From positions 5,458 to 69,457 of the forward strand of contig JAGQKV010000006.1 of assembly GCA_020429915.1 (NCBI GenBank): a DNA stretch of 64,000 bases, read 5' to 3'. The DNA is from Candidatus Omnitrophota bacterium (lineage in GTDB: Bacteria; Omnitrophota; Gorgyraeia; Zapsychrales; Zapsychraceae). The notes beneath the pieces are model-generated. The model saw only the letters and a program-made list of their open reading frames with translations, was not told where the DNA came from and did not search any database. This document shows, piece by piece, positions 3-16,136 of the stretch; position 1 is the stretch's first letter, and each line of letters begins with the position of its first letter. A program made the position numbers and the translations under genes.

Positions 3-389
3 GCACATGTGCTGGACGTCAGCGGGAGCGGGGCGCCGCTGCAATTCGGCGCATTTAAATACTACCTCTTTCCGAGCATGATGCAGCGTTTCGATAACCG
101 GTTTTTACGCATCCAGGATATTATGGCCCAGATCCCGGAATCGGAAATCAACCGGCTGCAGACCTTCGTGCCGGCCCCCAACGGCGCTCTGGTGATCGAC
201 GACGATCCGGTGCAGGAGCAGCCGTTTAACCGTGTCTGGCTGATGAGCGCCAGTTGGGACAATAAGGGTGATCAGGAGGCCATTCTCAATATTAACGCCT
301 TGCAGGTGCGTTCGCTGTTCGACAGGTTGTTCCATAAGAAATCAACTCAAATCAACGACGGGATTTATCTTGAACTTTACGAAAAGTAA
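3..389 (+). CDS. 3' end of an upstream gene, open from the window edge; function unknown
   Basis: Reading frame is open from base 3 with no upstream stop inside the window. Codon usage matches neighbouring genes. I recognise no motif. Confidence 0.35.
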   Translation, partial: AHVLDVSGSGAPLQFGAFKYYLFPSMMQRFDNRFLRIQDIMAQIPESEINRLQTFVPAPNGALVIDDDPVQEQPFNRVWLMSASWDNKGDQEAILNINALQVRSLFDRLFHKKSTQINDGIYLELYEK

Positions 390-2187
390 TCATATTCTCG
401 CGCTGCTGGTGTTTTTGTTTTTGTCGGTTTTGTTTACGGCGCCTATCTACGATAATTCCGACATGTGGGGACAGAAGGACTGGGACCAGTTCGTGATGTG
501 GAATGCGGTGCCGTACCGGACGATCACCGAGTTTCGTCAATTTCCCCTGTGGAACCCTTACGTCAACGGCGGGAACGTGATGCTGGCGCATCCTCAATCC
601 GCGTTCCTGTCACCGTTTTTTATCTTCGTCCTGATCTTCGGTCCGTATCTCGGGCTCAAGATCCAGATCACCGTGCATGTGTTTCTGGGATTGTGGGGCA
701 TGTTCCTGCTCGCCAAAAACCTGGCGCTGCGCGATATGGCGGCCTACCTGGCGGCGTTCGTCTTTATGTTTGCCGCCGTGTATCCGCTGCATCTGACCGA
801 AGGGCACACCGAATGGCTGTGCATGGCGTTTATGTCGTGGCTGTTTCTCGCCTATCGCAAAAGTCTCGACGATATCCGCTATGTGCTGGCCGGTATTGTC
901 TTTCTCAGCCTGATTCTGCTCAACGGCAGCGTGGACGTCTTCAATATCTTTAATGTCTTTCTAGGGTTGTACGCGGTCCTGACGGCCGCGCGTTCGCGCG
1001 ACTGGATGCCGGTCAAATCCCTGATGATGATCTTCGCGGGGACCTTTCTGCTGTGTGCGGTCAAACTGTTTCCCATGCTTGACTTTATCCGTGAATTTCC
1101 CCGCACGGGGGAAGAAGCGGGCGGTGGTGTGACTTTGGGGATTCTTTTCCGGATGTTGCTGGATCCCAACCAGGAAACGCTCGATATGATGAACTGGCTC
1201 GACGGGTACCGGATGGGCTTGACGCATGAGTGGCACGAGTACGGCGCGTATGTCGGAATTCTGCCGCTGGTGTTGGGACTCGCGGGCTGTGTCATTTTCT
1301 TCCGGAAATACTGGCCGCTGATCGTCTCTGGCATGGCTATGCTGCTGATCGCCCTGGGCGACGGGACTATGTTGAATGCGTGGCAGCTCTTGCGCCGTCT
1401 GCCGGTTTACGATTCGCTCACTGTCCCGTCGCGTTATATTGTGGGGTTCGTTTTTCTGTTGGCGCTCACCGCCGCGATGACCCTGCAGCTGATCAATGAC
1501 CGGTTGGCCGGTCAGCGCGGTCTACGGGCCAAGGTTCTTAAGGGGGCGGTGGTCCTGATGTTTCTGTTTATTCCGTACCATCTCATTGAGATGAATTCGA
1601 GCATCTTCTGGAACGCCTTCCGGGTGGAGCCGGTCACTTTGCGTCACAATCCGGTTTTTGCCCAGCGCTACCGCGAGGTCCGTTTTCAGGAAGAATATGT
1701 GACCAACAGTTCGATCTATCCGGTCTTTATGAGTAATTCCGGAATTGTCGAGGGGTACGAAGTGATGCAGTTGACACGGGGCGCCGTAACGGTGCTCGGC
1801 GAATCCGGCTACCGGGGAGAGTATTTTTTTGATTTTCCCCGGGGAGAGCGGGAGCTGGTTCTGTTTTCCCCGAATAAACTGGTATTCGACATCAAGCTGG
1901 ACCGTTCCAATCTGCTGATCATCAACCAGAATTATCACAAGGGGTGGACGGCGTCTATTCCGGGCCACCGGCTCGCCGTCTCCCAAACCGCCGGATTGAT
2001 TTCGGTCGTGTTGCCGGAAGGGGAGTACCGGCTTGAACTGACGTACCGGCCGCAGCCGTTTCTCGTCGGAGGTGCCGTTTCGTTGTTGACGCTGGTCCTG
2101 CTACTGGCTAAGGCTTGGGAATGGCGTTCCCCGTCCGGCGGGCGCGGACGGAAGAAGTCCGAGAAGCCGCACGCCGCCGTTTCCTGA
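388..2187 (+). CDS. YfhO-family polytopic membrane protein (putative exofacial glycosyltransferase)
   Basis: About 12 predicted TM helices. The 'FPLWNPYVNGGNVMLAHPQSAFLSPFF' segment matches the YfhO family signature (WNPY..GG...PQ). The track ORF starts at 268 but overlaps the preceding gene in another frame; the real start is probably a non-ATG codon near 388-465, just before the first TM helix. A C-terminal soluble domain is present. Confidence 0.6.
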   Translation, partial: NHILALLVFLFLSVLFTAPIYDNSDMWGQKDWDQFVMWNAVPYRTITEFRQFPLWNPYVNGGNVMLAHPQSAFLSPFFIFVLIFGPYLGLKIQITVHVFLGLWGMFLLAKNLALRDMAAYLAAFVFMFAAVYPLHLTEGHTEWLCMAFMSWLFLAYRKSLDDIRYVLAGIVFLSLILLNGSVDVFNIFNVFLGLYAVLTAARSRDWMPVKSLMMIFAGTFLLCAVKLFPMLDFIREFPRTGEEAGGGVTLGILFRMLLDPNQETLDMMNWLDGYRMGLTHEWHEYGAYVGILPLVLGLAGCVIFFRKYWPLIVSGMAMLLIALGDGTMLNAWQLLRRLPVYDSLTVPSRYIVGFVFLLALTAAMTLQLINDRLAGQRGLRAKVLKGAVVLMFLFIPYHLIEMNSSIFWNAFRVEPVTLRHNPVFAQRYREVRFQEEYVTNSSIYPVFMSNSGIVEGYEVMQLTRGAVTVLGESGYRGEYFFDFPRGERELVLFSPNKLVFDIKLDRSNLLIINQNYHKGWTASIPGHRLAVSQTAGLISVVLPEGEYRLELTYRPQPFLVGGAVSLLTLVLLLAKAWEWRSPSGGRGRKKSEKPHAAVS

Positions 2188-2205
2188 AAGGCTGTCGCGT
2201 ATTCC

Positions 2206-3723
2206 ATGAACACATCCGCGCGCAAATCCTCCTCAGCCGATCCTGCCATGACTGTGTGGTTGTGGATTATGATCGGCTTTATGGGCTACCGTTTGGTGTT
2301 ATACGCGCTGTACGCGGTGGACCACATTACCTATCCCTTCGACTACGATGCCGGTGAGGGGCTGATCCTCAGCCGTGCCTGGATCATGGCGCGGGGTGGC
2401 GATATCTATTCGCCCGTTACCGTCGAGCCTTACTTCGTCATGAACTACCCTCCGGTGTTTGAGGGGTTGGTCGCGGTCGTGGCCAGGCTGTTCGGTCCCG
2501 GCCACTGGATCGGCCGGCTGCTGTCGGTGACCGCCGCGGGCGTCTGTGCCTTTTGTGTCAGCCGGATTGTCCGGCAGCATTCCGGCAAATCCCTGTCGGC
2601 GGTCGCGGCGGGGCTCCTTTTGTACGCCTCCTGTTGGTTGACGAGCTGGTCCGTGATCAGCCGGGTGGATACTTTCGGTTTAATGTGCACGCTGGCCGGA
2701 TTGGCCGTCATGTCGCGGGATGCCTCGCGGCGGACGGTGCGGACAGTTCTAGCGGGAGCGGTGCTGTTCAGCTTGGCCTTATTCACCCGGCAGAGCCTGA
2801 TTGCCGCCCCGCTGGCCTGCGCCTTGGCCTACCTGTTTCCCAATGACAATGAACCGCAGCGCCGACGTCACAAGATCGTTTTTCTCGGCGCGATGATCGT
2901 CATCCCGGCGGTCTTGCTGGCGGTTATGCAGCTGGTCACCTGCGGAGAATTCTACCGGCACACAGTGCTCTATACCATGGGGGAATTTGAAGTTGCTCAT
3001 TTCACGCGCTGGATCGGCGACTACCTCAATATGCACGGAGCGACGGTTGTGCTGTGTGCGGGATATGCGTTCATGCGCCGGCGTGAGCCGCGTCTGCGAG
3101 TCCCGCTGTTGTTTTGGGTCCTGTCCCTGGCCGTGTCTTTCACGGCCGGTAAGGAGGGGGCATCGATCAACTACTTCCTGGAATTCTGGGCGGCCAGTTG
3201 TATTCTGATCGGATTGATGCTCGGTGAACTCGAACACTTTCGCGGTAGCGGCTGGCGCCGACTGGCCGGGCCGGTGATCGTCGGCATCCTGTTCGTACAG
3301 GTGCTGGTCATGCATTACCGTACCGATTTTAATCATGTGCGGGAAGTGTACCGCCAGAGTTCCGCCCGGTTATCCGCATACGTGCGCGACTCCCCCGGAG
3401 AGGTCCTTTCGGAGTACACCGGATATCTCGTGATTAACGGTAAACAGCCGGTTTATCAGCCGTTTTCCATGACGCAACTCGCTGAACGCGGACTGTGGGA
3501 TGAAGAAAAGTTTATTGCGGATATCGAACGCGGGCGGTTTTCCTTGATTGTTATGACCAATGTCGGGATGGGTTACGGCCGCTGGTCGCAGCGGATGATT
3601 GACGCGGTTAAATCTCATTATGATTTGATCGATACACTACCGTGCTACGAGTTGTCGTTTTATGAAAGCAGCGTCAACGTCAACAATGTGTATCGTCGTA
3701 AACAGATCGCGGGGAAGAGATGA
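2206..3723 (+). CDS. GT-C fold membrane glycosyltransferase (PMT/ArnT/GT87-like)
   Basis: Polytopic membrane protein with an acidic first-loop motif 'FDYDAGEGL' following TM1, as in GT-C enzymes. Its stop overlaps the next start (ATGA at 3720). Confidence 0.5.
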   Translation: MNTSARKSSSADPAMTVWLWIMIGFMGYRLVLYALYAVDHITYPFDYDAGEGLILSRAWIMARGGDIYSPVTVEPYFVMNYPPVFEGLVAVVARLFGPGHWIGRLLSVTAAGVCAFCVSRIVRQHSGKSLSAVAAGLLLYASCWLTSWSVISRVDTFGLMCTLAGLAVMSRDASRRTVRTVLAGAVLFSLALFTRQSLIAAPLACALAYLFPNDNEPQRRRHKIVFLGAMIVIPAVLLAVMQLVTCGEFYRHTVLYTMGEFEVAHFTRWIGDYLNMHGATVVLCAGYAFMRRREPRLRVPLLFWVLSLAVSFTAGKEGASINYFLEFWAASCILIGLMLGELEHFRGSGWRRLAGPVIVGILFVQVLVMHYRTDFNHVREVYRQSSARLSAYVRDSPGEVLSEYTGYLVINGKQPVYQPFSMTQLAERGLWDEEKFIADIERGRFSLIVMTNVGMGYGRWSQRMIDAVKSHYDLIDTLPCYELSFYESSVNVNNVYRRKQIAGKR

Positions 3724-5339
3724 GCGGGCGGCAGGTTAAGATTCTGTTGGCCGGCGGCGGAATGTTCGTGGCGGCGGCCTTATTGTTTGCCCGGTTGGGG
3801 GCGATCCCGTTATGGGATGATGAGGCCACGACCGCGTTGTTCGCGCAATCGGTGTGGCGGACCGGCGATACCGACGTGCGGGTGGGGCACAATATCGTGG
3901 CCTATCAGTCCGGCGTGGAAATCAGGGATGGGAAGAACCGGGTCATCCCGCCGTTGCCGTTTTATCTGGCCGCCCCTTTTGTGGGGAACGCACCGGGTTC
4001 GGCGCTGGCCGCGCGTTTGCCGTTTGCGTTGTGCGGCCTGGCCACCATCGGGGTGATTATTTTATGGCTGGCGCGCACGGGAGTATGCGCGGGGACGTGG
4101 CTGGCGATGCTCGCGGGACTCTTGTGCAATGTTTCGTTTCTGCTCTTCAGCCGGCAATGCCGCTATTATGCGCCGGTGATGCTGTTGTCGGTGATCTCTG
4201 CTTATTTCTATCAGTTTCGTGACCGGGGCCGTCTGTATTTGTTTGGATTGATCACCGCCGGCGTGTTGCTGCTGAGCGCCAACTATCTGTGTTACGCCGG
4301 GGTTATGGCCTGCCTGGCGGTGGACTACCTGATGTGGGGTCGGCGGGCGCGGGCATATCCGATCGGGGACATTCTGCTGTTTGTGGCGATCCAGCTGGCG
4401 GCGGTTGGCGCGGTCGTAATATTTTACAATCCGTTCGGCGTTGACATCTGGAACGTTCCGCGGCAGGCGTGGATCGTCGAAAAACTCACCTTATTTTTCT
4501 GGAACTGGCGGGATCTCAACAGCAATGAATTCGGGGCCGGATTGCTGATCGCGATGGCAGCGATCCTGGGGTTCTTCGGCAGGGACCGGCAGGCCCGCCG
4601 GGCGGTAACGGCGCTCACGGTATACATTGCGGTGGTGAGCGTGTTGACCCCACAGCCCGTCAACCTGTTGTCCGTGGCCTTTGTGCGTTATCTGGTTCCG
4701 GTCATACCGCTGTGCGTGTGGATTACGGTGATCTGTGTGCGGTACACCGCGACGCGTCACTACGTTTTGGCGGTCGTGCTGGCCGTTCTCGTCTTCGGGA
4801 CCAATATCCTGCACGGCGGTCCGCTCGTCGGAACCGACCCGCGGACGGTTTTCAGTTCGGTCATCGCGCAGGGGAAGTTTCGTAGCACCATTGCGCAATA
4901 CATCGGGGAACTGATCGACCCTCCGCCCAGCGCGTACGGCGAGATGGCGCAGTGGATCAACCGTCATGTCGGGGAGGGGCAAAGTGTATGGGTAACGCCC
5001 GGTTACGCGACGTACCCGCTGATGTACCACGCCCCGCGCGCGCTGTATGCCTGGCAGCTCGAGGCCGGATCCGGCCGTTTTCCCGGGCTGCCCGCGATTC
5101 ACTTTGCCGGACAACAGGCGCCCGAATTTATCGTTGCCTTCGGTCCGTACCGGGCGCAGGCCCTGGCGGCGATGGAGAAATTGAAGGCCCGGGGAATGTC
5201 GTACCGCGAAGAAGGGACCGTCAACCGTTACTGGTATGATCTGATCCGACCCGAACTGTTTTGGCACGCCTTTGGGGAGGTCCGTGAATTTTCGCCGGAT
5301 GACGAAGCGGTGTACCTGTACCGGAGACAGCGGCCGTAA
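3720..5339 (+). CDS. GT-C glycosyltransferase, family 39/83-like (ArnT/PMT_2-type)
   Basis: 'PLWDDEATTALFAQSVW' after TM1 is the canonical DE motif of ArnT/PMT_2 enzymes. 10-12 TM helices plus a C-terminal periplasmic domain. Confidence 0.6.
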   Translation: MSGRQVKILLAGGGMFVAAALLFARLGAIPLWDDEATTALFAQSVWRTGDTDVRVGHNIVAYQSGVEIRDGKNRVIPPLPFYLAAPFVGNAPGSALAARLPFALCGLATIGVIILWLARTGVCAGTWLAMLAGLLCNVSFLLFSRQCRYYAPVMLLSVISAYFYQFRDRGRLYLFGLITAGVLLLSANYLCYAGVMACLAVDYLMWGRRARAYPIGDILLFVAIQLAAVGAVVIFYNPFGVDIWNVPRQAWIVEKLTLFFWNWRDLNSNEFGAGLLIAMAAILGFFGRDRQARRAVTALTVYIAVVSVLTPQPVNLLSVAFVRYLVPVIPLCVWITVICVRYTATRHYVLAVVLAVLVFGTNILHGGPLVGTDPRTVFSSVIAQGKFRSTIAQYIGELIDPPPSAYGEMAQWINRHVGEGQSVWVTPGYATYPLMYHAPRALYAWQLEAGSGRFPGLPAIHFAGQQAPEFIVAFGPYRAQALAAMEKLKARGMSYREEGTVNRYWYDLIRPELFWHAFGEVREFSPDDEAVYLYRRQRP

Positions 5340-5485
5340 CCCGGTTCCGTGTCCGGAAGTATCTGAATCTGTTGTCTTTTGCGGTCTTAGTACGGTATGA
5401 TAGTCAACAATGCGACCGTCTGCGGCGGGAATTGATCCGCGATCGCGTTGTCCAGAGCCGCCAACCGGTATCGGGGAATACGCCG

Positions 5486-7417
5486 ATGAAGAAAATTTCC
5501 GTCCTGGCCATCATGGTATTCGTGATCGGGGTCGCCTTGCGTGTCCAGCTGTTGCAGGCGCCCTATATCGAGGACGAACGTAAAAATATATATATCGCGC
5601 AACAGATTTCGTTCGAGCCGGGACACGCGTATCTTCCGCTCGAACACAAAGAAATCACGCATCCGCTGTTAAACGTGTATCTGACCAAACTGGGCATGAG
5701 CGTGTGGGGTGAAAGCGGACCCGGCCCGCGTGTGATCCATTTTCTGCTCGGATCACTGACTTTGGCGCTGGTATACCTGTTGGCACGCACGTGGGGCGAA
5801 ATGGCCGGGGTATGGGCGCTGGCCGCGCTGGCTTTTAATCCTTATCATTTGCATGCCACCGTGCGTGCCGAGAATGCCAGCTCGCTGCTGTTTTTTACGG
5901 CGCTGGCGCTGTGGCTTTTTTACCGCGCGATGGAGACCCGGCGCGGTAAGTGGATGATCGCGCTGGGACCTGTTATGGGGGCCGCCTTTTTGACCAAGGG
6001 CGTCAGTCTCCTGCTGGTGCCGGCCATGGGACTGCTGTTGATAGGTCACGCCGATCAGCGCTTCTGGTGGCGCTCCCGCAGTCTTTACATCGCGGTCGGG
6101 CTTTTCATACTGACGATCAGCCCATGGCTGATTTGGGTGAGTGTGCACGGGACGTATCAGCTGATGTTCGAGCCGGGTATGTATAAACCCGCGATGATCC
6201 GGTTGAATCCGACCGCCGTTCATTTTTACCTGATTGATTTGTTTTGCCGGTTGAACCACGTCGAACCGCGGATGGTCACCAGTTGGGAGTACGGTCGTAT
6301 GGATATCGTCTCGGGACTGGTGTTGTTGCTGGGCGTCGTGTGGGCGGCTCTGAACAAGCCGGACCGCCTGGCGCGTTGGCTGCTGGCCTGTTTTACCGTC
6401 ATCGTGGTCGTGTTGAGTTTTTTCCGCCGGGATGGCAACGCCGTCGGTGAGTTTTGGTGGGTCAATCTGAGCTTGATTCCGGCGGTTTGTCTGGCCGGCA
6501 GGATGCTGTCGTCCTGGAACAGCTGCGGCAGGATGTTTCGTCTGATGACCTTCGGTGTCTTTGTTTTCTTATGCGTCCACGCGGCCTGTTTTGTCCGTAC
6601 GTTGCCGGGCGATATCTTGTATCCCCCGCGGCGGTTTTGTCCGTTGGTCGATCAGGATTACACGGTGGGCCGTCTGGCCATGACGGACGGCCGCTATGAT
6701 TTGGCCCGCAGCGAGTTTAAACAACATCTCCGGTACGCACCGAACAATGTCGAGATTCTCAGTTTTCTGGGATTGCTGAATTTTCACCAGGGCCACTTTG
6801 ATGCGGCCGTCGACTATTGGGCGCGGGCGTTGGTTTTGGATCCGCATTATGTTCATGTCAGCAACAAGCTGATCAATCACAGTGCGGTGTTGCGCGCGCA
6901 TTTCTTGCGGCGATGGTATGAGAATACAACCGATCCGCAGACCGCTTACTATTTGGGCGTGGTGAATTTCTACGACGGGCAGTTCGATCAGGCCCGGGCC
7001 TTTTTCGACCGCTTGTCCCGACTTGAGCCGGGGTTGCCCGCGGCGGCTTATTACAAGGCCCGTATTCACTATGCCAAAAAAGAGTACGCTGTGGCCGAGA
7101 CAATGCTCCGGGAGGTCTTGCGGGGAAGGCCGGGTTTCACCGGCGCCCATTTTGCGCTGGGCCAAGCCTACTTGAAAGAAGGCCGTTACCGGGAAGCCGT
7201 GGCCGCCTTTGACGGGGAATTGCGGTCCAATCCGCAGGATTTAAAATCGATGTACTACCGGGCACAAGCGTTCGAGAAATCGGGTGCCGCGGGCGAGGCG
7301 TCCGTTGCCTACCGGGCCGCGCTGGATCTCGTTCACGCCGATCTGATTCAGCGTCTGCGCGAGACGGATCCGTCGCCATACATCAAAATACTGTCATTAA
7401 CAAGGGGAGCGTCTTGA
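5486..7417 (+). CDS. GT-C (PMT_2/ArnT-like) glycosyltransferase fused to a C-terminal TPR domain (TMTC-like architecture)
   Basis: Start taken at the ATG at 5486 (MKKISVLAIMVF..). 'YIEDERKNIYIAQQI' is a first-loop DE motif. The C-terminal ~230 aa carry TPR-like repeats (e.g. 'AYYLGVVNFYDGQFDQARAFFDRL..', 'AHFALGQAYLKEGRYREAVAAF'). Confidence 0.6.
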   Translation: MKKISVLAIMVFVIGVALRVQLLQAPYIEDERKNIYIAQQISFEPGHAYLPLEHKEITHPLLNVYLTKLGMSVWGESGPGPRVIHFLLGSLTLALVYLLARTWGEMAGVWALAALAFNPYHLHATVRAENASSLLFFTALALWLFYRAMETRRGKWMIALGPVMGAAFLTKGVSLLLVPAMGLLLIGHADQRFWWRSRSLYIAVGLFILTISPWLIWVSVHGTYQLMFEPGMYKPAMIRLNPTAVHFYLIDLFCRLNHVEPRMVTSWEYGRMDIVSGLVLLLGVVWAALNKPDRLARWLLACFTVIVVVLSFFRRDGNAVGEFWWVNLSLIPAVCLAGRMLSSWNSCGRMFRLMTFGVFVFLCVHAACFVRTLPGDILYPPRRFCPLVDQDYTVGRLAMTDGRYDLARSEFKQHLRYAPNNVEILSFLGLLNFHQGHFDAAVDYWARALVLDPHYVHVSNKLINHSAVLRAHFLRRWYENTTDPQTAYYLGVVNFYDGQFDQARAFFDRLSRLEPGLPAAAYYKARIHYAKKEYAVAETMLREVLRGRPGFTGAHFALGQAYLKEGRYREAVAAFDGELRSNPQDLKSMYYRAQAFEKSGAAGEASVAYRAALDLVHADLIQRLRETDPSPYIKILSLTRGAS

Positions 7418-8670
7418 AAGTTATCCCGCGCCGGTTGGTCGCGTTTGAAAAAGGGGAATTGGCCGCGAGCTGGCGGGTCCTGCGCGGCGAAGAGGAGGCC
7501 GGACTGGTTGCTGAATTTGAGCAGCGGTTCACCGAGTACGTGAGCGTCCCCTACGCGATGGCGGTCTCTTCGGTGCGTGACGGTTTTTCGTGCCTGCTGG
7601 ACGTGCTCGAATTCGCGCCCGGCGACGAAATCATCATGGCCGCCTACAACTATCATGTCATGCCGCTGATCGTTAAAAAGCGCGGACTGGTGCCGGTCTT
7701 CGCGGACATCGATCCGGACACGCTGAATATCGATCCCGGTCAAATCGAAAGATTGATCACCGACAAGACCCGGGCGGTTATTGTGACCCATCTGTTCGGA
7801 CGGTCGGCACGCGCGACGGAAATCCAAAAGATCTGCCGGGAACGCGGGCTGATATTGCTCGAGGACGCGGCCCACGCGTGCGGGGCCGAATGCGACGGCC
7901 GCAAGGTCGGCGGGTTCGGCGATTTCGGGATGTTCAGCTTCGGGACCGGTAAATGTCTGGTGACGCTCGGCGGGGGGGTCATCGTCTCCCGGAACACGGA
8001 AGTGTTTACCAGGCTCCGGGAGCGGTTGGACAATCAGGACCACCCGGGGGAACGCTGGCACAGCACCAGTTACTATCTTAAATGCCTGCTGCAAATTGCA
8101 CTCACCAACCGGACGCTGTTTGCGGTCCTGGTATATCCTTGGATTTTGTTGGCCGACCTGATACGGCTGGACATCATCGAACGGCTGACCGGAGATAAAT
8201 ATACGTCGGCGGATGTCAGCGCCAAGAGCCAGGTGCAGCCGTTCGCTGAATTCCAGGCCCTGCTCGGATTGCAGCAACTCAAGCGGCTGGACGCCATGAA
8301 CGACAAACGGATCGCGCGCGCCCAGCTGCTCGACCGCTATCTTGAGGATGTGAAAGAGATCAAACGGATCCCGGTTGTGGGGAACCGCGAGCACATCGCC
8401 CAGTCGTACACCGTTATTTGCGATGATAAGAACGCGCTGCGGCGGCATTTGCTGCGTAAAGGCATCGACACCAAAGAATCGTCTATGCGCAATTGCGCGC
8501 AGTTCCTGGGGGCGGACGGCCCGTTTCCCGGTATGGCCGGGATCGACGACCGTATTGTCGAATTGCCCTGTTCCCAACACCTGAGTGAAAACGAGATGTT
8601 ATACCAGGCCAATGCGGTCCGGGACTTTTTCGGCTATCCGATGACATCCGGTCCGGGCGGAGGCAGATGA
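7414..8670 (+). CDS. DegT/DnrJ/EryC1/StrS-family PLP-dependent sugar aminotransferase
   Basis: 'GDFGMFSFGTGKCL' is the PLP-lysine region. Overall fold-type I aminotransferase layout typical of nucleotide-sugar aminotransferases. The overlapping 410-aa antisense ORF (7348-8580) is rejected. Confidence 0.8.
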   Translation: MKVIPRRLVAFEKGELAASWRVLRGEEEAGLVAEFEQRFTEYVSVPYAMAVSSVRDGFSCLLDVLEFAPGDEIIMAAYNYHVMPLIVKKRGLVPVFADIDPDTLNIDPGQIERLITDKTRAVIVTHLFGRSARATEIQKICRERGLILLEDAAHACGAECDGRKVGGFGDFGMFSFGTGKCLVTLGGGVIVSRNTEVFTRLRERLDNQDHPGERWHSTSYYLKCLLQIALTNRTLFAVLVYPWILLADLIRLDIIERLTGDKYTSADVSAKSQVQPFAEFQALLGLQQLKRLDAMNDKRIARAQLLDRYLEDVKEIKRIPVVGNREHIAQSYTVICDDKNALRRHLLRKGIDTKESSMRNCAQFLGADGPFPGMAGIDDRIVELPCSQHLSENEMLYQANAVRDFFGYPMTSGPGGGR

Positions 8671-9446
8671 TGGCAGATTTCTGGAAAGACAAGGTCGTGA
8701 TCGTCACCGGCGCTTCTTCGGGAGTGGGCCGCAGCTGCGTCGAGGAGATGTCCGCGCGGAGGGCCAAGGTTGTGCTGGCGGCCCGCCGGCTGGAGCGGAT
8801 GCAGGAAATCGGAGAGACACTTCCGCGGGAGTCGACGCTGATCGTTCAAACGGATGTGGGAAAACAGGGCCAGGTCGAGGCGATGGTCCGCCGGACGGTG
8901 GAACATTTCGGACGGGTGGACGTCCTGGTCAACAACGCCGCCGTCGGTATGGGCGGGAATGTGATCACCTGTCCGCTCGATAAATACGAAGAACTCATGC
9001 AGATCAATGTCTTCGGCGCGTTGTACTGCATGCGGGCCGTGTATCCGCACATGAAGGCACAGGGCGGCGGGGCGATTGTCAATGTCAGTTCGATCGCCGG
9101 CTTCAAAGGCTTTTACACCTGCGGGCTTTATGCCAGCTCCAAGCACGCCCTCAACGGCATGAGCGAAAGCTTAGGAGAAACGGCACGCAAAGACAACATT
9201 CACGTGGCGTTGATCTGTCCGGGAAAGATCGAGACGGAATTTGACCAGAAGCTTTTGTATTTCGAAGGGAAGCGCTCGACTGAGAACAGCGGCATCGAGC
9301 CGGTCGAAGTCTGCCGGGCGATCATGCGCGCCGTCGAGAAAAAGAAGTGCCTGATCGTCCTCGGAAAAAAGTGCATGCCGCTGTATTTGTTGAACCGACT
9401 GTCGCCGGAGCTGACGAACTTTCTGATCCGCAAGCTCTACGCCTGA
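8667..9446 (+). CDS. Short-chain dehydrogenase/reductase (SDR)
   Basis: 'VTGASSGVG' Rossmann motif and the 'YASSKHAL' catalytic YxxxK. About 259 aa, classical SDR length. Confidence 0.85.
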   Translation: MMADFWKDKVVIVTGASSGVGRSCVEEMSARRAKVVLAARRLERMQEIGETLPRESTLIVQTDVGKQGQVEAMVRRTVEHFGRVDVLVNNAAVGMGGNVITCPLDKYEELMQINVFGALYCMRAVYPHMKAQGGGAIVNVSSIAGFKGFYTCGLYASSKHALNGMSESLGETARKDNIHVALICPGKIETEFDQKLLYFEGKRSTENSGIEPVEVCRAIMRAVEKKKCLIVLGKKCMPLYLLNRLSPELTNFLIRKLYA

Positions 9447-9477
9447 CCGTGTCCCGGACGCGACTAAAATCGAATTC

Positions 9478-11226
9478 ATGAGAAGCAAAGACATCTCCAT
9501 CGCTTTTATTTGCAATGCCGTTTTATTGGGCCTGTTATGCGCCGATGCCCTCGGTCTCAATCTGTATCTCCGGGCTTTGTTCGTCAATTTGGCGATGTAT
9601 GTGGTCCCCGGAACGGGCTGGCTGGGCATCATGCGCCGGCATGTTTCGAGCGCGGTGTTCCTGTTGTTTTTTCAATTCGTCCTGTCCGTTGCCGCGTTGA
9701 TCGTCCTGCATTTGGGATTCCTCGCCGCGGGACACGTCCCGGACACGCACACGTTTTTAGTCGGTCTGCTGGTCCTGACAAATGCCGGTATTCTCGTCAG
9801 CCGGCCGGCAGCGGCGTTCGCCATGCTGCGTTTTGATTACTGGCGGATCGTGATTCTGGGCGTGACCCTGGTCTGCGTTTATACCTGCGTGTTTGCGGGC
9901 ATGCGCACTCTCCCCGGACAGTTGGACCTCGACGGCGAACATCAGGGAACGGCCTACGGGATCGTCCACGAGTTCCGGCCCTATCTGACCAGCGACATCA
10001 TCGCCTCGCCGTACTACTTCGCCCATCCGCCGTTAACCAATATTTTTAACGCCTACAGCACTTTGCTGTTGAACCGGACGGAAGATTACCGTTATTTTTA
10101 CGAAACCGCGAAACAGACCGAGCGCGTGCTCGGCTTGCGCCCCGGCGGACAGGAACCGGTGAGCCTTGGTCCGGAGCGGGGAAGTTTGATTTACTTCCAG
10201 GGCAGTACCTATGTCTTCCGGACGATGCGCGGCAATGACATGCTGGACCGGCCGATTTCCCGGCAAAGGGTGATGGAACATTTGGCGGCACCGGATCAAA
10301 AGAAGTTCTTCGACGATCCGCGGCCGTTTCCGGCGCGCGCTTCGAATATTTTTGCCAGCCTGTTCGTCCTGTGCGTGCTGTTTCAGTGGATCACCAAGCT
10401 GACGAATTCGCGGCTATTGGGTATCGTCGCCGGATTTGTCTATGTCTTCTCGCCGGGGATTTTCATCCGCTCCTGTTTCTCCGAGCACGTGGCCTTCACC
10501 AACGCCCTGTTGGTCGTATTGGCCTATCAGTTTTGTTTTCCCGAAGAATTCCGGGGAAAGGGACGTTGGGGCGGCCTGCTGGCCTATGTCCCGGGGCTGA
10601 TCGCCGGGCTGATCAATCAAAAAATAGTAATCATGGTCGCGCCGGTACTGGTGATGGAAGTCGTGACGTGTCTGCGGCAACGCGGGGCCGGGTCGTGGGC
10701 GGTCCGGCTTGTGAAGGCGGCGCCCATTCCCGCGGGTTTCGCGGCGGGCACGGTGCTGTTTTGGATCTACGGTCTGGCGATTGACCCGGCGGCGTTTTTT
10801 ATTTCGCATCTGCGGACACATTTTTTCGACCGTCTGCTGCATTTGAACACCATGTTCGGCGGGGATTATCCCGGCGCCGGTCTGCTCTGGTATCAGTTCA
10901 ATCACGAATTTCCGCCTTTTTTGCTGAGCGTCTTCGCTGTGTTGTATAGTTTAAAGAGCCAGCGCAACCGGACTGTCGTCTTTTTGACCGCCTGGGCCGT
11001 TTTCGGCGGAGTCCTGTTTTCCGTGGTCGACTGGAAACAAACCAATCATCTCACTCAGCTGACGATTCCGTTGTTGGCCGTGTTGATGATGTATATCGAA
11101 CAGCAGCCGCTCGCCTACAAACGGGTGTTAAAGGTTTTGGTGGGGTTGTGTCTGCTTTACGGTTTCTGGTTCGACATGCAGCTGCTGGCGGATTTTCATT
11201 TTTACAAACCGGTCAGCGGATGGTAA
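9478..11226 (+). CDS. Polytopic membrane protein, possibly a further GT-C-type glycosyltransferase
   Basis: More than 12 hydrophobic helices. A loop 'DGEHQGTAYGIVHEF' is reminiscent of GT-C first-loop motifs. No firm family assignment. Confidence 0.4.
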   Translation: MRSKDISIAFICNAVLLGLLCADALGLNLYLRALFVNLAMYVVPGTGWLGIMRRHVSSAVFLLFFQFVLSVAALIVLHLGFLAAGHVPDTHTFLVGLLVLTNAGILVSRPAAAFAMLRFDYWRIVILGVTLVCVYTCVFAGMRTLPGQLDLDGEHQGTAYGIVHEFRPYLTSDIIASPYYFAHPPLTNIFNAYSTLLLNRTEDYRYFYETAKQTERVLGLRPGGQEPVSLGPERGSLIYFQGSTYVFRTMRGNDMLDRPISRQRVMEHLAAPDQKKFFDDPRPFPARASNIFASLFVLCVLFQWITKLTNSRLLGIVAGFVYVFSPGIFIRSCFSEHVAFTNALLVVLAYQFCFPEEFRGKGRWGGLLAYVPGLIAGLINQKIVIMVAPVLVMEVVTCLRQRGAGSWAVRLVKAAPIPAGFAAGTVLFWIYGLAIDPAAFFISHLRTHFFDRLLHLNTMFGGDYPGAGLLWYQFNHEFPPFLLSVFAVLYSLKSQRNRTVVFLTAWAVFGGVLFSVVDWKQTNHLTQLTIPLLAVLMMYIEQQPLAYKRVLKVLVGLCLLYGFWFDMQLLADFHFYKPVSGW

Positions 11227-11241
11227 GAGAGAGGCGTCTGA

Positions 11242-13017
11242 ATGCAACGGGTCGTTGATTGGTTGAGGGACAATCGCACACTGTTGTGGCTGACATGCGC
11301 GCTGTGTCTGTTGCGGGCGGCGCCCTTATTCAGTGTGGAGGCGATTTGGCCGTCGCTCGAACGCTTCTATGCCGGAACCGTGGCCCGCGAGATGGCCGAC
11401 GGGCTGAAAATGCCACTCCTGGATTATCAATTCAGCAGCTATGAACCCGGATGGCTGCTGGCGGGTTTGCTTTGCCTGCCCTTTATGAAGCTCGTCGGTT
11501 TCACGTCGTTCGGCATGGCGTTGGCCGGGATATTATTGGACGCGATTCAATTTGTGATTTTTTATCGCATCCTGAACCGTTACATCAATCCACGCGTGGC
11601 ATTGTTTTACGGTTTGCAATATATCATCGCGCCCTACATTCTTCACGTCACCAACATCTTCGTCAACTTCAGTTATTTTGACCTGCCCTTTCTGACCGCC
11701 CTGTTTTTGGGAATGTATCTGAAGATTTTTCGTGACAACGGGGTTCACGCCGTTGTCGGGGGGACGGGCTTTTCGTTGTTTTGTCTGGGGCTGTTGGGTG
11801 GATTCTCGACGTGGCTTTGCCTGGCTTTTTTACTGATCGCCGTGCCGTGCCTGGTGCATTGGCGGGTTTATGTCCGCCGCGCGCGGCCGCGGGAAGTAGG
11901 CGCGTTTCTGGGCGGGTTCCTGATCGGCTTGAGCCCGTTGTTACTGCGCTGGTCCACCTTTGCCGGCGGAATCCAAAGCGGAATCCTTGAGCGGATCCTG
12001 GCGCAGGACGCCGGCGGGTTCATTTCAAGGTTGATTGGATTTCTTGCGGTGCGGCCGGCGTTTGCCTGGTCGGTGTTCTTTCAGTACATCGAGATCCTGG
12101 GTGTCCTGCTTTTTGTGATACTCATTATTCTGAGGAGAAAAGAGCTCGGCCGGGCCGTATCCGGATTATTCGGCGGCCGGGTCGGGGCTCCGGACGACAA
12201 CGGACTTCCGGTGATCTATATCGTCTATCTCCTGACGTTTATCACGGTATTCTGTTCGAGTGATTTTTCGAATGAACGGTATTTTCAGCCTGTGTATCCC
12301 TTTTTATTCGGCTGCAACGCCATGGCCGTTGACGGGCTGATGCGGATGCGGTCGCGCGTTTGGGGCCGGATCGGCACGGGGGTCCTGACTTTGCAATTGC
12401 TGCTGGCGGCGGCCGACTGCGCGACGGTCCCGCTGTATCGGACCGCGCCGAACCTGGCGCTCTTTCGCGACCGGGCCTATTCATACGCGTTGATCGGTTG
12501 CCTGTCCAGCTGGCGCTTCCGCCTGGACCCGCGGCGGGTGATGGCCATTTACGCGCGGTTGAAATCCGACGAAGACCGGCAGGCCTACATGCGGGGCTTC
12601 GGCTTCGAACTGGCAGTGGAAAGTGACGATACGCTTGCCGACGATTATTTCCAGTACCTGCGGGAGCATTTCCCCACAGACGACGGACGCCGCCGCGCTT
12701 TTCGCGTCGGACTCTTGCTGGGGCAGGGACAGCGGCAGTACGAAGGTACCGCGTTGTCCGAATTTTATCCGACGATACTGCAGTCCGTCACCCGGGAGGA
12801 GGTGCGACGATTCGTGAAGGAACAGGTTCGGCTGATCGGTTTTGAGGACGATGCCGACCGGCCGGCGTTATATGCGGGACTGGGTCAACAGTTTTTTGCG
12901 GTAGCCCCGGACATCGGGCTGCCCGCGGCGGAGGTAATTCCGTTTATTGAAGAGAAGTACCGGGGTGATTTCTTTCAAGGCCGGTTGCTGGCCGATCGTT
13001 ACCGGGATCAAATCTAG
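11242..13017 (+). CDS. ArnT/PMT-like membrane protein with a unique C-terminal soluble domain (paralog 1 of a tandem pair)
   Basis: 591 aa. 'WPSLERFYAGTVAREMADG' resembles the ArnT 'DEARYAEIAREM' loop. The N-terminal ~330 aa are membrane-embedded; the C-terminal ~250 aa are soluble. Clear paralog of the next gene. Confidence 0.5.
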   Translation: MQRVVDWLRDNRTLLWLTCALCLLRAAPLFSVEAIWPSLERFYAGTVAREMADGLKMPLLDYQFSSYEPGWLLAGLLCLPFMKLVGFTSFGMALAGILLDAIQFVIFYRILNRYINPRVALFYGLQYIIAPYILHVTNIFVNFSYFDLPFLTALFLGMYLKIFRDNGVHAVVGGTGFSLFCLGLLGGFSTWLCLAFLLIAVPCLVHWRVYVRRARPREVGAFLGGFLIGLSPLLLRWSTFAGGIQSGILERILAQDAGGFISRLIGFLAVRPAFAWSVFFQYIEILGVLLFVILIILRRKELGRAVSGLFGGRVGAPDDNGLPVIYIVYLLTFITVFCSSDFSNERYFQPVYPFLFGCNAMAVDGLMRMRSRVWGRIGTGVLTLQLLLAAADCATVPLYRTAPNLALFRDRAYSYALIGCLSSWRFRLDPRRVMAIYARLKSDEDRQAYMRGFGFELAVESDDTLADDYFQYLREHFPTDDGRRRAFRVGLLLGQGQRQYEGTALSEFYPTILQSVTREEVRRFVKEQVRLIGFEDDADRPALYAGLGQQFFAVAPDIGLPAAEVIPFIEEKYRGDFFQGRLLADRYRDQI

Positions 13018-13028
13018 GAGAGCGAAAG

Positions 13029-14804
13029 ATGGAAGGCATCGGCCGCTGGCTGAAGAATAACCGGAGTCTGGTGATCCTCACCGCCGCCCTTATCGCGGCG
13101 CGGGTGTCGTTGATTTTCTGCACCGAGCAGCTGTGGCCGTCGCTGGAACGGTTCTACACCGGGACCGTGGCCAAGGAGTTGGCCGACGGCATGGCCATGC
13201 CGCTGTGGGATTATCAGTTCAGCAGCTATGAGGCCGGGTGGCTGCTGGCGGCCCTGCTGTGCCTGCCGTTCTTTAAACTGTTCGGTTTTACGTCCTTTGC
13301 CATGGGCTTGTGCGGCATTATTCTCTACGTCATCCAGTTCGTTTTGCTCTACCGGCTGATCGAAAGGGGACTGAACCGCCGGGTCGCCGTTTTCTTCGGC
13401 CTGCAATACCTGTTCGCGCAGTATATCTTCAATCTCAACGCCCTGTTTGTCGGCTTTAACTACTTTAACATCGTTTTCCTGTACGCCCTGTTCCTCACTT
13501 TTTACCGGGCGGTCTTCCGCGACAATGCGATCCACGGTGTGGTCGGCGGGCCGTTGCTTTCGTTGTTTTTCTTAGGGCTGCTCGGCGGGTTTTCGACATG
13601 GGTGTGCTACGCCTTCGCGTTGATTGCGATCCCGTGCTTCATTCACTGGTGGATTTATTACCGTTCCCGGGATCTGCGGACGGTAGTGAGTTTTGTCGCC
13701 GGTTTCGTACTCGGCGGCAGCCCGTTGTTTTTTCGAATCGCCACGTTCGCCGGTGGGATCAAGACGGATATCCTGGCCAAGATCATCGCACAGGATTTGC
13801 CGGGCTTTATCGCGAAGTTTTGGCATTTTATCGGATTTGAACACAGTTACGCGCGTTCGGTGTTTTCCGATTACCTGGAGATCCTGGGAACGATTTTATT
13901 TGCGCTGATCATCTTTTTGAAGCGAAACGACCTGGGCCGTTTACTCGGTGCCGTTTTCGGATCGCGTGCCGTGGAAGAAGGCGAGAGCGGGACGTTTTTG
14001 CTGTTCTGTCTGTACCCCGCGGCCTTCCTGACCGTGTTCTGTCTGAGCGGTTTCGCGGACTACCGCTACTTTGCGCCGGTCTATCCGTTTGTCTTCGCTG
14101 TGAACGCCATTGCCGTCGATCTTCTGCTGAGTTACCGGAACCGATTTGTGAAGGGATTGGGGGCCGGATGTCTCGGGGTTTTATTGCTTTTTGGGGTGGC
14201 CGATAGTATAATTATACCGCTATATCCGGTTGCACCGAATCTTGCTTTATTCCGCGACGAGGCCTATTCCTACGAACTTTTGGGGTGTCTGGTCAGCTGG
14301 CGCTTTAAGGATGACCCCAGACGGGTTATGCGTGTGGTCAACCGGCTTTCCGACGATGAGAAACGCACGGATTTATTGCGCGGTTTCGGATTCGAGCTGG
14401 CCTTCGACGGGAACGAAGAACTCATCAAAGAGTACGATGTTTTTTTCGCCAACACCTACCGTCACCGGCCGGCGTTCCTGAAGGCTTATTCCAAGGGGTT
14501 TGTGATGGGGCTCGGCCACGAATATTTCGACGGCACGCCCCTCGGCGAATATTATCCGGAGGTCTTGCGGAATATCCCGCGCACCGGAGTCGAGCGGTAC
14601 TTGGTTAAGAAGCTGGACTTGATCGATATGCTCGATCCCCGGTACCGGCCGAAATGCTACATCGGTTTAGGTTTCCAGTTTTCCGCCCTTGAGGAGGAAT
14701 ACGGTCTGGACGCAGAATTTGTAACGCACCGGATCGGCACGGAGTATCACGACGACTTTATGCGTGGTGTCGCGCTTGGAAAAACATATACTTACCGGCT
14801 CTAA
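13029..14804 (+). CDS. ArnT/PMT-like membrane protein (paralog 2 of the tandem pair)
   Basis: 591 aa and collinear with the previous gene ('WPSLERFYTGTVAKELADG', 'DYQFSSYEAGWLLAALLCLPF', 'ALFRDEAYSYELLGCLVSWRF' conserved between the two copies). Confidence 0.5.
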   Translation: MEGIGRWLKNNRSLVILTAALIAARVSLIFCTEQLWPSLERFYTGTVAKELADGMAMPLWDYQFSSYEAGWLLAALLCLPFFKLFGFTSFAMGLCGIILYVIQFVLLYRLIERGLNRRVAVFFGLQYLFAQYIFNLNALFVGFNYFNIVFLYALFLTFYRAVFRDNAIHGVVGGPLLSLFFLGLLGGFSTWVCYAFALIAIPCFIHWWIYYRSRDLRTVVSFVAGFVLGGSPLFFRIATFAGGIKTDILAKIIAQDLPGFIAKFWHFIGFEHSYARSVFSDYLEILGTILFALIIFLKRNDLGRLLGAVFGSRAVEEGESGTFLLFCLYPAAFLTVFCLSGFADYRYFAPVYPFVFAVNAIAVDLLLSYRNRFVKGLGAGCLGVLLLFGVADSIIIPLYPVAPNLALFRDEAYSYELLGCLVSWRFKDDPRRVMRVVNRLSDDEKRTDLLRGFGFELAFDGNEELIKEYDVFFANTYRHRPAFLKAYSKGFVMGLGHEYFDGTPLGEYYPEVLRNIPRTGVERYLVKKLDLIDMLDPRYRPKCYIGLGFQFSALEEEYGLDAEFVTHRIGTEYHDDFMRGVALGKTYTYRL

Positions 14805-14818: not shown

Positions 14819-15985
14819 ATGTATCAATCCCAGGAAAAACCGACCCGCCTTAATTATTTCCAGAAAGTCGTCAGCCATCTTACTTATTTTGATTTCGTCT
14901 ACAAAAATCCCTGGGTTGTAGCCCGCCTTATCAAGAATTATTTCCGAATCATCGTCTTGCGGCAGCAGGTTATCCGCATTATCGATATCGGCGTTACCGC
15001 CGCATGCAACGCCAAGTGCGCGCATTGCTGCAGCGACGCCACCGTCGACACGCGCTGCACCACGCAAGGTGCGCCTGAGATGCGTGAACCGCTCGACATT
15101 GAAGAAATCGAAGATATCATCGCTCAAAGCGTGAAGATGGGTGCCGTGATTTTCAATTTCCTCGGTGGCGAACCACTGGTGTACAAAGACATTTACCGCG
15201 CCATCCGTTGCGTCAAGAAGCATCATGCCATCGCCGGGATGTCGACGAATGGATTTCTGCTTTCCGAAAAGGTCGTCGCTCAGTTGAAAGAAGCCGGGCT
15301 TGACTGCATTCAGGTGGACCTCGGCGGGGGACTCAATCCCAAGGAAATCGACGAGATCCGCGGACTCACCGGATGTCTTGACAGGGCGCTGAACGGGATC
15401 CGGCTGCTGAAGGAGGCCAACATCAAGGTCATTATGAGTACGATCATGACCAAGAAGAATGCCGCCAACGGGGACATCTGGAAGATGGTTCAGCTAGCCA
15501 AGGACCTGAACATCAAGATCAACGTCAATTGCTCCTCACGCACCGGCGGGTGGGCCGGCAATGAGGACAGCGAGCTGTCCGAAAAGGAATTTGCGATCTA
15601 CAAGGAAATCATCAAGATGCCGCACACGCGGTGGGCCGGCAGCACGAATTATTTTGCCGAGTTCTGTCCCTGCGGGACCGAAAAGATCATGATCACCACT
15701 TACGGTGAGATTCAGCCCTGCGGGTTGATCCCGCTTTCTTACGGGAATTTCCGCAGCGAGGCGATCAATGATATCTGGACCCGCATGCAGACCCAGAAGA
15801 TCATTTGTGACGGCAAGAAGGAAAAGGCCTGCCGCTCCGCCTGGGATAAGGACATCATCCGGCTGAACACATCCATGTATGAAACGGATAAGCCCAAACC
15901 GTTGCGGGTCGACGACATTCCCCAGGAGCGGTTGAAGGCCACGGAAAAGCCGGCGGATTCGACGGTCAATTCTTCCCAATCGTAG
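14819..15985 (+). CDS. Radical SAM enzyme with C-terminal SPASM/twitch domain
   Basis: 'CNAKCAHC' CX3CX2C radical SAM cluster motif. A second C-terminal Cys cluster 'CPCGTEK..PCG' is typical of SPASM/twitch auxiliary domains. An AGGAGG RBS lies 7 nt upstream. Confidence 0.75.
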   Translation: MYQSQEKPTRLNYFQKVVSHLTYFDFVYKNPWVVARLIKNYFRIIVLRQQVIRIIDIGVTAACNAKCAHCCSDATVDTRCTTQGAPEMREPLDIEEIEDIIAQSVKMGAVIFNFLGGEPLVYKDIYRAIRCVKKHHAIAGMSTNGFLLSEKVVAQLKEAGLDCIQVDLGGGLNPKEIDEIRGLTGCLDRALNGIRLLKEANIKVIMSTIMTKKNAANGDIWKMVQLAKDLNIKINVNCSSRTGGWAGNEDSELSEKEFAIYKEIIKMPHTRWAGSTNYFAEFCPCGTEKIMITTYGEIQPCGLIPLSYGNFRSEAINDIWTRMQTQKIICDGKKEKACRSAWDKDIIRLNTSMYETDKPKPLRVDDIPQERLKATEKPADSTVNSSQS

Positions 15986-16105: not shown

Positions 16106-16136
16106 TTGTAGACAAAGAGGTTAATGGGGATATAAT
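16106..16136 (+). promoter_or_regulatory. Candidate sigma70-like promoter for the second SPASM rSAM gene
   Basis: TTGTAG(16106-16111)-N19-TATAAT(16131-16136) inside a 231-bp AT-rich intergenic region. Confidence 0.3.

Follow-up and report, generated by a model that had tools for sequence, protein, structure and literature searches.

What would an uncultured bacterium build with a long series of membrane-embedded glycosyltransferases encoded one after another on the same strand? The question is raised by a stretch of 64,000 nucleotides (nt), here called the window, from a Candidatus Omnitrophota bacterium (GCA_020429915.1, contig JAGQKV010000006.1, positions 5,458–69,457 of the forward strand), a member of an abundant group that has not been brought into culture and whose cells are often ultra-small and perhaps dependent on a host. 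Positions 370–14804 of its plus strand encode seven polytopic proteins (named G1–G4 and G7–G9 here) together with a DegT-type aminotransferase (G5) and a classical short-chain dehydrogenase/reductase (SDR; G6). An earlier sequence-only reading had interpreted this region as an array of seven or more exofacial glycosyltransferases, of YfhO-like and GT-C types, decorating one acceptor from polyprenyl-phosphate sugars. Profile searches, structure models and conserved acidic motifs support the assignment of the polytopic proteins, and of an eighth member (G0), to the GT-C enzymes, and what the operon most likely builds is a complex glycan at the periplasmic side of the inner membrane.

Between positions 9 and 33920, every predicted gene lies on the plus strand and is connected to its neighbors by overlaps or short gaps, with intergenic distances of at most 374 nt. 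According to the best-supported reading, the array would lie at the heart of a long operon whose genes all point the same way. The 4-nt overlaps reported at 3720, 7414 and 8667 are all present, and those at 3720 and 8667 are of the ATGA type, but the junction at 7414 reads TTGA and uses a TTG start instead of the proposed ATGA or GTGA. The remaining spacers in the flagged region measure 11–31 nt, except for that between G3 and G4, which amounts to 146 nt if G4 starts at ATG 5486 as in the public gene call. The array does not begin at 388 as initially stated, which is not a gene start; G1 begins with TTG 370 and overlaps the end (389) of the G0 gene by 20 nt. Since the tail of G0 overlaps the start of G1, the array comprises eight members and is longer than the window shows, in line with the earlier count of seven or more. 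Only the C-terminal piece of G0 (9–389) lies in the window. The complete gene is found in L007 (ENA scaffold ERZ28655481 scaffold_11, which contains the whole window and whose position 7796 corresponds to window position 1), where the gene call at 6559–8184 encodes 541 amino acids (aa) and begins some 1.2 kb before window position 1, and in L009 (8395–10020). An Rfam scan of the window revealed no RNA family, and a terminator scan yielded 45 sites as opposed to 23 expected, nearly all of them within T-rich genes for membrane proteins, and was taken as uninformative.

GT-C enzymes are polytopic membrane proteins with some 11–13 or more transmembrane helices. A defining feature is an acidic motif of the DxD, DD or DE type, located soon after the first transmembrane helix (TM1) in the first extracytoplasmic loop (PMC6801728). 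All seven polytopic proteins exhibit a short N-terminal tail bearing lysine or arginine, matching the positive-inside pattern, followed by a first hydrophobic helix and many further hydrophobic segments in hydropathy plots, and helical bundles are apparent in the structure models, which cover G7 and G8 only. The acidic motif directly follows TM1 in all but G7, namely as DWDQ in G1, DYD in G2, DDE in G3, EDE in G4 and E40...D61 in G8 and G9. Each of the peptide motifs quoted in the earlier reading is found in the translation of the protein to which it was ascribed, and conservation was read from alignments of the G1 orthologues and of the G3, G7 and G8/G9 families. The Pfam family PMT_2 (PF13231, cutoff 26.1 bits) is matched above its cutoff by G2, G4 and G0 and just below it by G9, while G8 and G3 give no match. 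Profile searches against PDB sequences, conducted with the family alignments of G7, G3, G8/G9 and G1 and with G2 alone, gave nothing meaningful. As hhalign did not link G1 or G7 to the PMT_2-type families, the placement of G7 and G8 rests on structure prediction and that of G1 on weak Pfam matches.

Three members are assigned to the PMT_2 type directly: G0 (47.2 bits), G2 (2206–3723; 505 aa, 48.2 bits), which displays DYDAGEG after TM1, and G4 (5486–7417; 643 aa, 87 bits), in which the acidic motif YIEDERKNIYIAQQI had been noted. The longest open reading frame (ORF) of G4 would start at TTG 5372. Besides PMT_2, G4 matches PMT (46 bits) and many families of tetratricopeptide repeats (TPR), which form a C-terminal domain; a PDB profile search with G4 returned TPR proteins only. 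Among the PMT/TMTC protein O-mannosyltransferases (GT39/GT105; PMC7801869), the TMTCs likewise join a PMT-type module to TPRs at the C-terminus, a likeness of domain layout, and G2 and G0 share membership of PMT_2 with the PMT family, whose Pmt structures are among the fold matches described below. G3 (3720–5339; 539 aa) is a divergent PMT_2-like protein with WDDEATTA after TM1, and its sequence is 100% identical to that of an NCBI protein from a metagenome-assembled Candidatus Omnitrophica/Omnitrophota genome. It has no Pfam match itself, and 13 of 45 sampled homologues from its family of more than 427 members match PMT_2 weakly, some of them under source names such as GT39 or ArnT-like. Comparison by hhalign aligns the G3 family with the G0 family over 375 columns from the N-terminus (probability 91.9%, E 7e-7) and with the G2 family at a probability of 70%. 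W32, D34 and E35 are invariant in the G3 alignment, and D33 is conserved in at least 90% of the sequences.

G1 (370–2187; 605 aa) is a probable GT-C enzyme that is better described as YfhO/AftD-like than as a member of YfhO. The YfhO label of the earlier reading was derived from a motif that is indeed present, as the first loop reads YDNSDMWGQKDWDQF...WNPYVNGG, but at the family level the label depends on a sub-threshold match (PF09586; 25 bits, with the cutoff at 28.5) confined to the C-terminal profile positions 762–835 of 835. One G1 orthologue reaches 32 bits, again through the C-terminal end only, and two orthologues show weak N-terminal matches to GT-C_AftD (E 2e-4 and 2e-3). The sole NCBIfam matches of G1 are PgfM1 (24.7 of 1400) and PgfM2 (19.9 of 1500), both below the equivalog cutoffs. 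The first-loop motifs WGQKDWDQF and QFPLWNPYVNGG are kept in the G1 orthologues.

G7 (9478–11226) represents a family that has no match in Pfam, NCBIfam or PDB sequences, also when searched at the family level, and that hhalign does not link to the PMT_2-type families. Its AlphaFold (AF2) model has a predicted local distance difference test score (pLDDT) of 89 and a predicted TM-score (pTM) of 0.91. When this model is compared with the PDB by Foldseek, the best 24 matches all belong to the GT-C fold, with ArnT in first place (E 2e-5, TM-scores 0.45/0.48), followed by DPY19, ALG12, STT3, AftB, AftA, PglB, PIG-U (the GT-C-fold subunit of the glycosylphosphatidylinositol transamidase), Pmt4 and EmbB. 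Across 50 diverse family members, D150, R287, G420 and H448 are invariant, and D152, H183, P184, K382, R452, D518, W519 and H524 are conserved in at least 90%. The D150-x-D152 pair (DLDGEHQGTAYG) is part of a motif, [DE]-D-x-D-x-[DE]-x-Q-G-T-x-Y-G, that lies 120–190 residues into the family module in 50/50 members. The motif thus departs from the usual placement directly behind TM1: it follows about five hydrophobic helices and is displaced by an N-terminal extension.

When 1.84 billion representatives are searched with a HMMER profile, 291 clusters are retrieved for the G7 family, including 185 with E ≤1e-30. A genome scan, for which alignment A1 served as the query since the wider alignment A4 was too divergent, retrieved relatives exclusively from metagenome-assembled genomes (MAGs) of Omnitrophota, Planctomycetota, Patescibacteria, Alphaproteobacteria, Acidobacteriota, Gemmatimonadota, Elusimicrobiota, Fermentibacteria and Eisenbacteria. 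A GT2 gene of the ArnC/DPM1 type occurs within 10 kb in 21 of 41 G7 loci outside Omnitrophota, a count for which there is no background rate for comparison; a G1-like gene is present in 11 of these loci, often adjacent in Planctomycetes, and a PMT_2 gene in nine. One relative of 25% identity is flanked by a PMT_2 gene on one side and by a pair of small GT2 genes on the other. This context supports a putative role that depends on lipid-linked sugars. In Planctomycetota MAGs (L020, L023, L024, L028, L030, L037), distant G7-family genes are located 150–600 bp from a G1-like gene on the same strand, suggesting that the G1–G7 pair recurs outside Omnitrophota.

The tandem paralogues G8 (11242–13017) and G9 (13029–14804) are 49% identical over 587 aa and form a rare family of which just eight sequences were found. 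E40, Y43, T46 and D61 do not vary within this family, and the acidic motif quoted for G8 is ERFYAGTVAREM. G8, in which an all-helical C-terminal domain is predicted in addition to the GT-C fold, has no match passing the threshold of any Pfam or NCBIfam family; G9 reaches 24 bits for PMT_2, just short of the cutoff, and five of the eight members match this family weakly. In Foldseek, the G8 model retrieves ArnT first, then STT3, ALG9, AglB, AftB and AftA, while ALG12, PglB, Pmt, Emb and DPY19 are also among the GT-C enzymes retrieved by the G7 and G8 models.

It could be argued that not all of the polytopic proteins are active glycosyltransferases, and that G1, G3, G7 and G8/G9 in particular could be transporters, flippases, scaffolds or pseudoenzymes with no more in common than the look of a helical bundle. 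G1, G3, G7 and G8 pass no curated family threshold, the profile searches against PDB sequences are empty, the acidic motif of G7 lies outside the canonical position, and no flippase has been identified, so that one polytopic protein could serve as such. Against this, the Foldseek lists of G7 and G8 are dominated by GT-C enzymes at a probability of 1.00 and transporters only at ≤0.3, G3 is tied to PMT_2 by profile comparison, the relatives of G7 co-occur with GT2 lipid-sugar synthases, and the Asp/Glu motifs are invariant across the families, which would not be expected of scaffolds. A role other than catalysis therefore appears very unlikely, and the GT-C identity proposed by the sequence-only reading, for which transporter folds or missing catalytic residues would have been detrimental, holds up: the G7 and G8 models show no transporter folds and catalytic-type Asp/Glu residues are conserved in the family alignments. 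In sum, the evidence from sequence families and predicted structures supports the view that G0, G1–G4 and G7–G9 are GT-C enzymes, G1 with the least certainty.

The arrangement of these genes is conserved. The order G0, G1, G2, G3, (B12-binding radical SAM), G4, DegT, SDR, G7, (DUF3108-like, SGNH/TPR), G8, two radical SAM/SPASM genes, two B12-binding radical SAM genes and SGNH/TPR, where SAM denotes S-adenosylmethionine, recurs in four other Omnitrophota lineages (L001/L002, GCA_050181705.1; L003/L005, GCA_030429765.1; L006; L011) at 30–83% amino-acid identity, which is more than chance would produce. L011 has no clear counterparts of G2 and G3, and a B12-binding radical SAM gene is inserted between G3 and G4 in L001, L003, L006 and L011. 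DegT, SDR and G7 are contiguous in every syntenic Omnitrophota locus, with G7 directly following the SDR. The co-conserved radical SAM and SGNH-TPR genes probably belong to the same pathway as the array. A search of the literature on Omnitrophota revealed no description of such a cluster.

The first of the genes downstream of the array encode two radical SAM/SPASM proteins (14819–15985 and 16217–17272; Pfam Radical_SAM and SPASM), whose orthologues occupy the matching position in L001, L003 and L011 at 54–68% identity. They are followed by two B12-binding radical SAM proteins (17275–18699 and 18704–20116; Pfam B12-binding and Radical_SAM), for which every NCBIfam match falls below the cutoff. 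The best sub-threshold matches of the first are a P-methyltransferase, BchE, ApyD and HpnJ, and this protein is 83% identical to its orthologues where the neighboring genes are only 35–68% identical, which implies unusually strong constraint. Three membrane-anchored proteins with SGNH/GDSL and TPR domains (20121–21389; 22294–23757, start uncertain; 23812–25269; Pfam) each have one N-terminal hydrophobic segment and have orthologues in the syntenic loci. The block further encodes a DUF3108-like protein (21687–22439; Pfam), two more B12-radical SAM proteins (25136–26758, start uncertain, and 29394–30692; Pfam/NCBIfam), a PP-loop-like ORF (26870–27799) recognized by the motif SGGTDS in the sequence and having a weak DUF7411 match only, and a SufS-like cysteine desulfurase (28173–29390; Pfam/NCBIfam). 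The latter two could provide a sulfur-transfer step or merely supply Fe-S clusters for the six radical SAM enzymes. The region's best match to a sigma-70-like promoter (16109–16136; 11/12 positions) is situated in a 231-nt gap preceding the radical SAM/SPASM gene at 16217 and could be an internal promoter.

These genes invite the alternative that two independent modules happen to be adjacent, one for glycosylation and one in which the radical SAM enzymes mature small Cys-rich peptides, similar to ribosomally synthesized and post-translationally modified peptides, or make an unrelated lipid or cofactor. The radical SAM/SPASM genes score best against the peptide-maturase and cofactor families PqqE, StsB, SkfB and GeoRSP, the B12-binding proteins score below threshold against HpnJ, BchE, ApyD and P-methyltransferases, three small secreted Cys-rich proteins are encoded upstream of the array, and the 231-nt gap with its sigma-70-like match precedes 16217. 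The entire gene order is, however, conserved across lineages, and radical SAM genes are interleaved with GT-C genes in the relatives (L001, L003, L006, L011). In addition, the small proteins bear a signal or anchor sequence, but no hydrophobic segment is present in the radical SAM enzymes, for which a cytoplasmic location is predicted. Two separate modules are accordingly considered improbable.

Which sugars would be transferred by the array? G5 (7414–8670; TTG start) is a DegT/DnrJ/EryC1-type sugar aminotransferase dependent on pyridoxal phosphate (PF01041, 212.9 bits), with the motifs DAAHA and SFGTGK read from the sequence; its best NCBIfam matches, DesI, PseC, LegC, WecE and ArnB, all remain below the equivalog cutoffs. 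G6 (8667–9446; adh_short, 183.5 bits) contains intact TGASSGVG (TGxxxGxG), NNAA and YASSK (YxxxK) motifs. Both enzymes had been named correctly in the earlier reading, as had the DPM1-like GT2 domain at 30689. This domain (105 bits in Pfam), taken to be cytoplasmic, is the N-terminal part of an unusual 677-aa fusion protein (30689–32722) that continues with a transmembrane helix (aa 248–266) and with SGNH and TPR domains. The residues encoded by 30689–31468 are closest to ArnC (1.2e-17), GtrB (2.8e-11) and DPMS (1.2e-9) among PDB sequences, and PgfS (74.4 of 500) is the best NCBIfam match, along with ArnC (70.8 of 529) and PpgS, all sub-threshold. The GT2 domain fits a lipid-donor synthase and is a candidate polyprenyl-phosphate sugar synthase, and G5, G6 and GT2 probably make an amino sugar and load it onto the lipid. 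Furthermore, the fusion of SGNH to GT2 and the presence of SGNH-TPR paralogues suggest that the lipid-linked sugar or glycan is acylated or deacylated on the far side of the membrane.

Candidate acceptors are encoded at the head of the operon, upstream of the window. In L009 (480–8268), a divergent gene and a 297-nt spacer are followed by genes for secreted Cys-rich proteins on the same strand as the array. They comprise a fiber-type protein of 384 aa with a Peptidase_S74 domain, a repeat protein of 1433 aa that contains 158 Cys and matches Sushi weakly, a protein of 448 aa whose N-terminus includes GQSIIEYALLITLVLAGV, and three small proteins of 79–87 aa sharing the motif G[YF]T[SA]G.YG.P...IC. 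Homologues are found at the matching position in L005 and L006 (1–4900). These proteins are candidate substrates for glycosylation, for the radical SAM enzymes, or for both. A protein acceptor is favored by these Cys-rich neighbors, by the TPR domain of G4 and by the Pgf-like nearest models.

The rival view is that the array builds or decorates a lipid-anchored glycan, such as the lipid A/core of lipopolysaccharide (LPS) or a lipoglycan put together step by step outside the cytoplasm like mycobacterial LM, LAM and arabinan, and that the Cys-rich proteins are merely co-expressed surface components. ArnT is the top structural match of both G7 and G8, the GT2 domain is closest to ArnC, G5 scores 113.3 bits against ArnB, and the last co-oriented gene of the block encodes a GT9 protein resembling heptosyltransferases (32727–33920; Glyco_transf_9, 82.5 bits) that reaches 114 bits against NCBIfam heptosyltransferase II, below its cutoff of 134.6. 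The window also contains genes for a BamD-like protein (YfiO/TPR) and for LptE (61273–62762), and the organism is therefore a diderm with LPS-assembly machinery. A precedent for distinct GT-C arrays converging on one lipoglycan is described for mycobacteria in two further papers (PMC3123699, PMC12041299). On the other hand, eight different GT-C enzymes far exceed what lipid A modification would need, G4 carries a domain for protein interaction, and secreted proteins open the operon in three divergent genomes. The Arn equivalog thresholds are not approached, and no family match fits the formyltransferase, extended SDR or deformylase of ArnA and ArnD. A lipid acceptor is consequently regarded as rather unlikely, while deserving to be kept in mind. 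An Arn-type operon for lipid A modification was rejected: none of the equivalog thresholds is reached, neither ArnA nor ArnD is present, and a set of eight GT-C enzymes with TPRs does not suit such a function.

The reading preferred here, which we hold to be probable, with a fair margin for error, is that the operon mediates extracytoplasmic glycosylation from lipid-linked sugars, including an amino sugar made by G5 and G6, with the upstream Cys-rich proteins as the likeliest acceptors. In the cytoplasm, G6 would oxidize a sugar hydroxyl and G5 would convert the keto sugar into an amino sugar. The ArnC/GtrB-like GT2 domain would attach sugars to polyprenyl phosphate, after which these lipid-linked donors would be flipped across the membrane. 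At the periplasmic face, the eight GT-C enzymes may each add one residue or form one linkage by means of their acidic loop residues, amounting to the stepwise decoration of one acceptor that had been proposed before. G7 would be the best candidate for the amino-sugar transferase because it is always adjacent to the DegT-SDR pair. The acceptors would be the secreted proteins from the operon head (the S74 fiber-type protein, the 1433-aa and 448-aa proteins and the three of about 80 aa), recruited by the TPR domain of G4, and additional tailoring of glycan or proteins would fall to the products of the radical SAM, B12-radical SAM and SGNH-TPR genes. Donor identity, topology, order of steps and acceptor are what we infer here beyond the observed gene content, family and fold assignments, conserved motifs and synteny.

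A number of points weigh against this reading. G1 is the weakest case for a GT-C enzyme, as its Pfam match is sub-threshold and confined to the C-terminus and hhalign reveals no profile link between it and other GT-C families. The Foldseek TM-scores of the G7 and G8 models are moderate (0.40–0.48), and the G8 model (pLDDT 77, pTM 0.80) was built on eight sequences. G6 is a classical SDR and not of the extended type, which is usual for nucleotide-sugar enzymes. The acceptor is assigned from gene neighborhood alone, and an acceptor of the lipid or LPS type, favored by the ArnT/ArnC/ArnB-like similarities and by GT9, would fit equally well. The label of Flp pilin for the 448-aa protein, whose N-terminus resembles an Flp prepilin by eye, was set aside as a lead only, as Pfam gave no match. 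Finally, a scan of every predicted gene in 9–33920 found no flippase of the GtrA, SMR or MATE type, and because the intergenic gaps are too short, no such gene would be hidden between the ORFs. Some 17 kb downstream, at 51080–51862 and unlinked to the operon, lies a gene for a membrane protein with a DedA/VTT domain. No other candidate for a transporter of lipid carriers was noted in the window; members of this family have been implicated in the translocation of polyprenyl phosphate.

The kinds of component assembled in this locus are already known, and their earlier classification was essentially right. Three-component systems are defined by a GT-C-fold glycosyltransferase acting with a lipid-linked donor (PMC11127046). 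GtrB-GtrA-Gtr*, CsbB-GtcA-YfhO and the GT136 systems share with the locus a GT2 polyprenyl-phosphate synthase, an extracytoplasmic GT-C enzyme and a donor of the lipid-monophosphate type (PMC11127046, PMC8035078). In contrast to these systems, the locus encodes not one but eight GT-C enzymes, drawn from no fewer than five sequence families unrelated to each other, has a GT2 protein but no recognizable flippase gene in the block, fuses the GT2 domain through one transmembrane helix to SGNH and TPR domains, and adds radical SAM and SGNH-TPR genes. With the Arn system (PmrHFIJKLM) it has in common a DegT-type aminotransferase (ArnB), an ArnC-like GT2 and ArnT-like GT-C folds, as well as the logic by which an amino sugar is placed on a lipid carrier and transferred in the periplasm. 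Its scores are, however, far below the Arn equivalog cutoffs (ArnB 113.3 of 631, ArnC 70.8 of 529, ArnT 20.2 of 567), ArnA and ArnD are lacking, a classical SDR takes the place of the extended-SDR domain of ArnA, and there are many GT-C enzymes rather than one. The Pgf system of Streptococcus mutans (PgfS, PgfM1, PgfE, PgfM2), which modifies surface adhesins, likewise combines a GT2, a sugar-modifying enzyme and YfhO-type GT-C enzymes (PMC5856776). Here, the differences are scores far below the equivalog cutoffs, a diderm host, eight GT-C enzymes and putative substrates that are Cys-rich and not Ser/Thr-rich. In mycobacteria and corynebacteria, EmbA/B/C, AftA-D, MptA-D and PimE represent several GT-C enzymes that act in series outside the cytoplasm, using polyprenyl-phosphate sugars to build one complex glycan, and AftA/B and Emb are among the structural matches of G7 and G8. 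Apart from the weak GT-C_AftD matches of the G1 orthologues, no sequence-level relationship with this set was found, the phylum and envelope differ, and the GT-C genes of the locus are contiguous in one operon.

What is new is that a single conserved operon encodes eight GT-C enzymes belonging to several families unrelated to each other, that two predicted GT-C-fold families (G7 and G8/G9) have no curated model, and that the acidic motif of G7 is atypically placed. The operon joins eight lipid-donor glycosyltransferases to amino-sugar synthesis, six radical SAM enzymes, periplasmic SGNH-TPR proteins and giant as well as pilin-like secreted proteins. It points to a complex surface glycoconjugate, which could mediate attachment. 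The G7 family, whose roughly 290 representative clusters are spread over many phyla, and the rare G8/G9 family would extend the catalog of GT-C enzymes and are targets for biochemistry. A more specific version of the preferred reading, offered tentatively as a possible but doubtful extension, envisages a maturation system for an Omnitrophota-specific surface fiber or pilus, in which the Cys-rich proteins (the giant repeat protein, the Flp-like protein and the three peptides of about 80 aa) receive in the periplasm, one residue at a time from the eight GT-C enzymes, a glycan that contains amino sugars and is tailored by radical SAM enzymes, and in which G7 founds a hitherto unclassified GT-C family with a catalytic DxD loop placed after a four-helix N-terminal extension.

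Two groups of genes follow the block. Immediately after it, two tandem, overlapping small genes encode PilZ-domain proteins of the cyclic di-GMP receptor type (34173–34851; 45 bits each). A separate cluster for glycan utilization extends from 35083 to 47902 and comprises a GH94-like phosphorylase, an ABC sugar transporter with one substrate-binding protein and two permeases, a GH2-like TIM-barrel protein, TPR proteins, a coiled-coil protein and a regulator of the LacI family.

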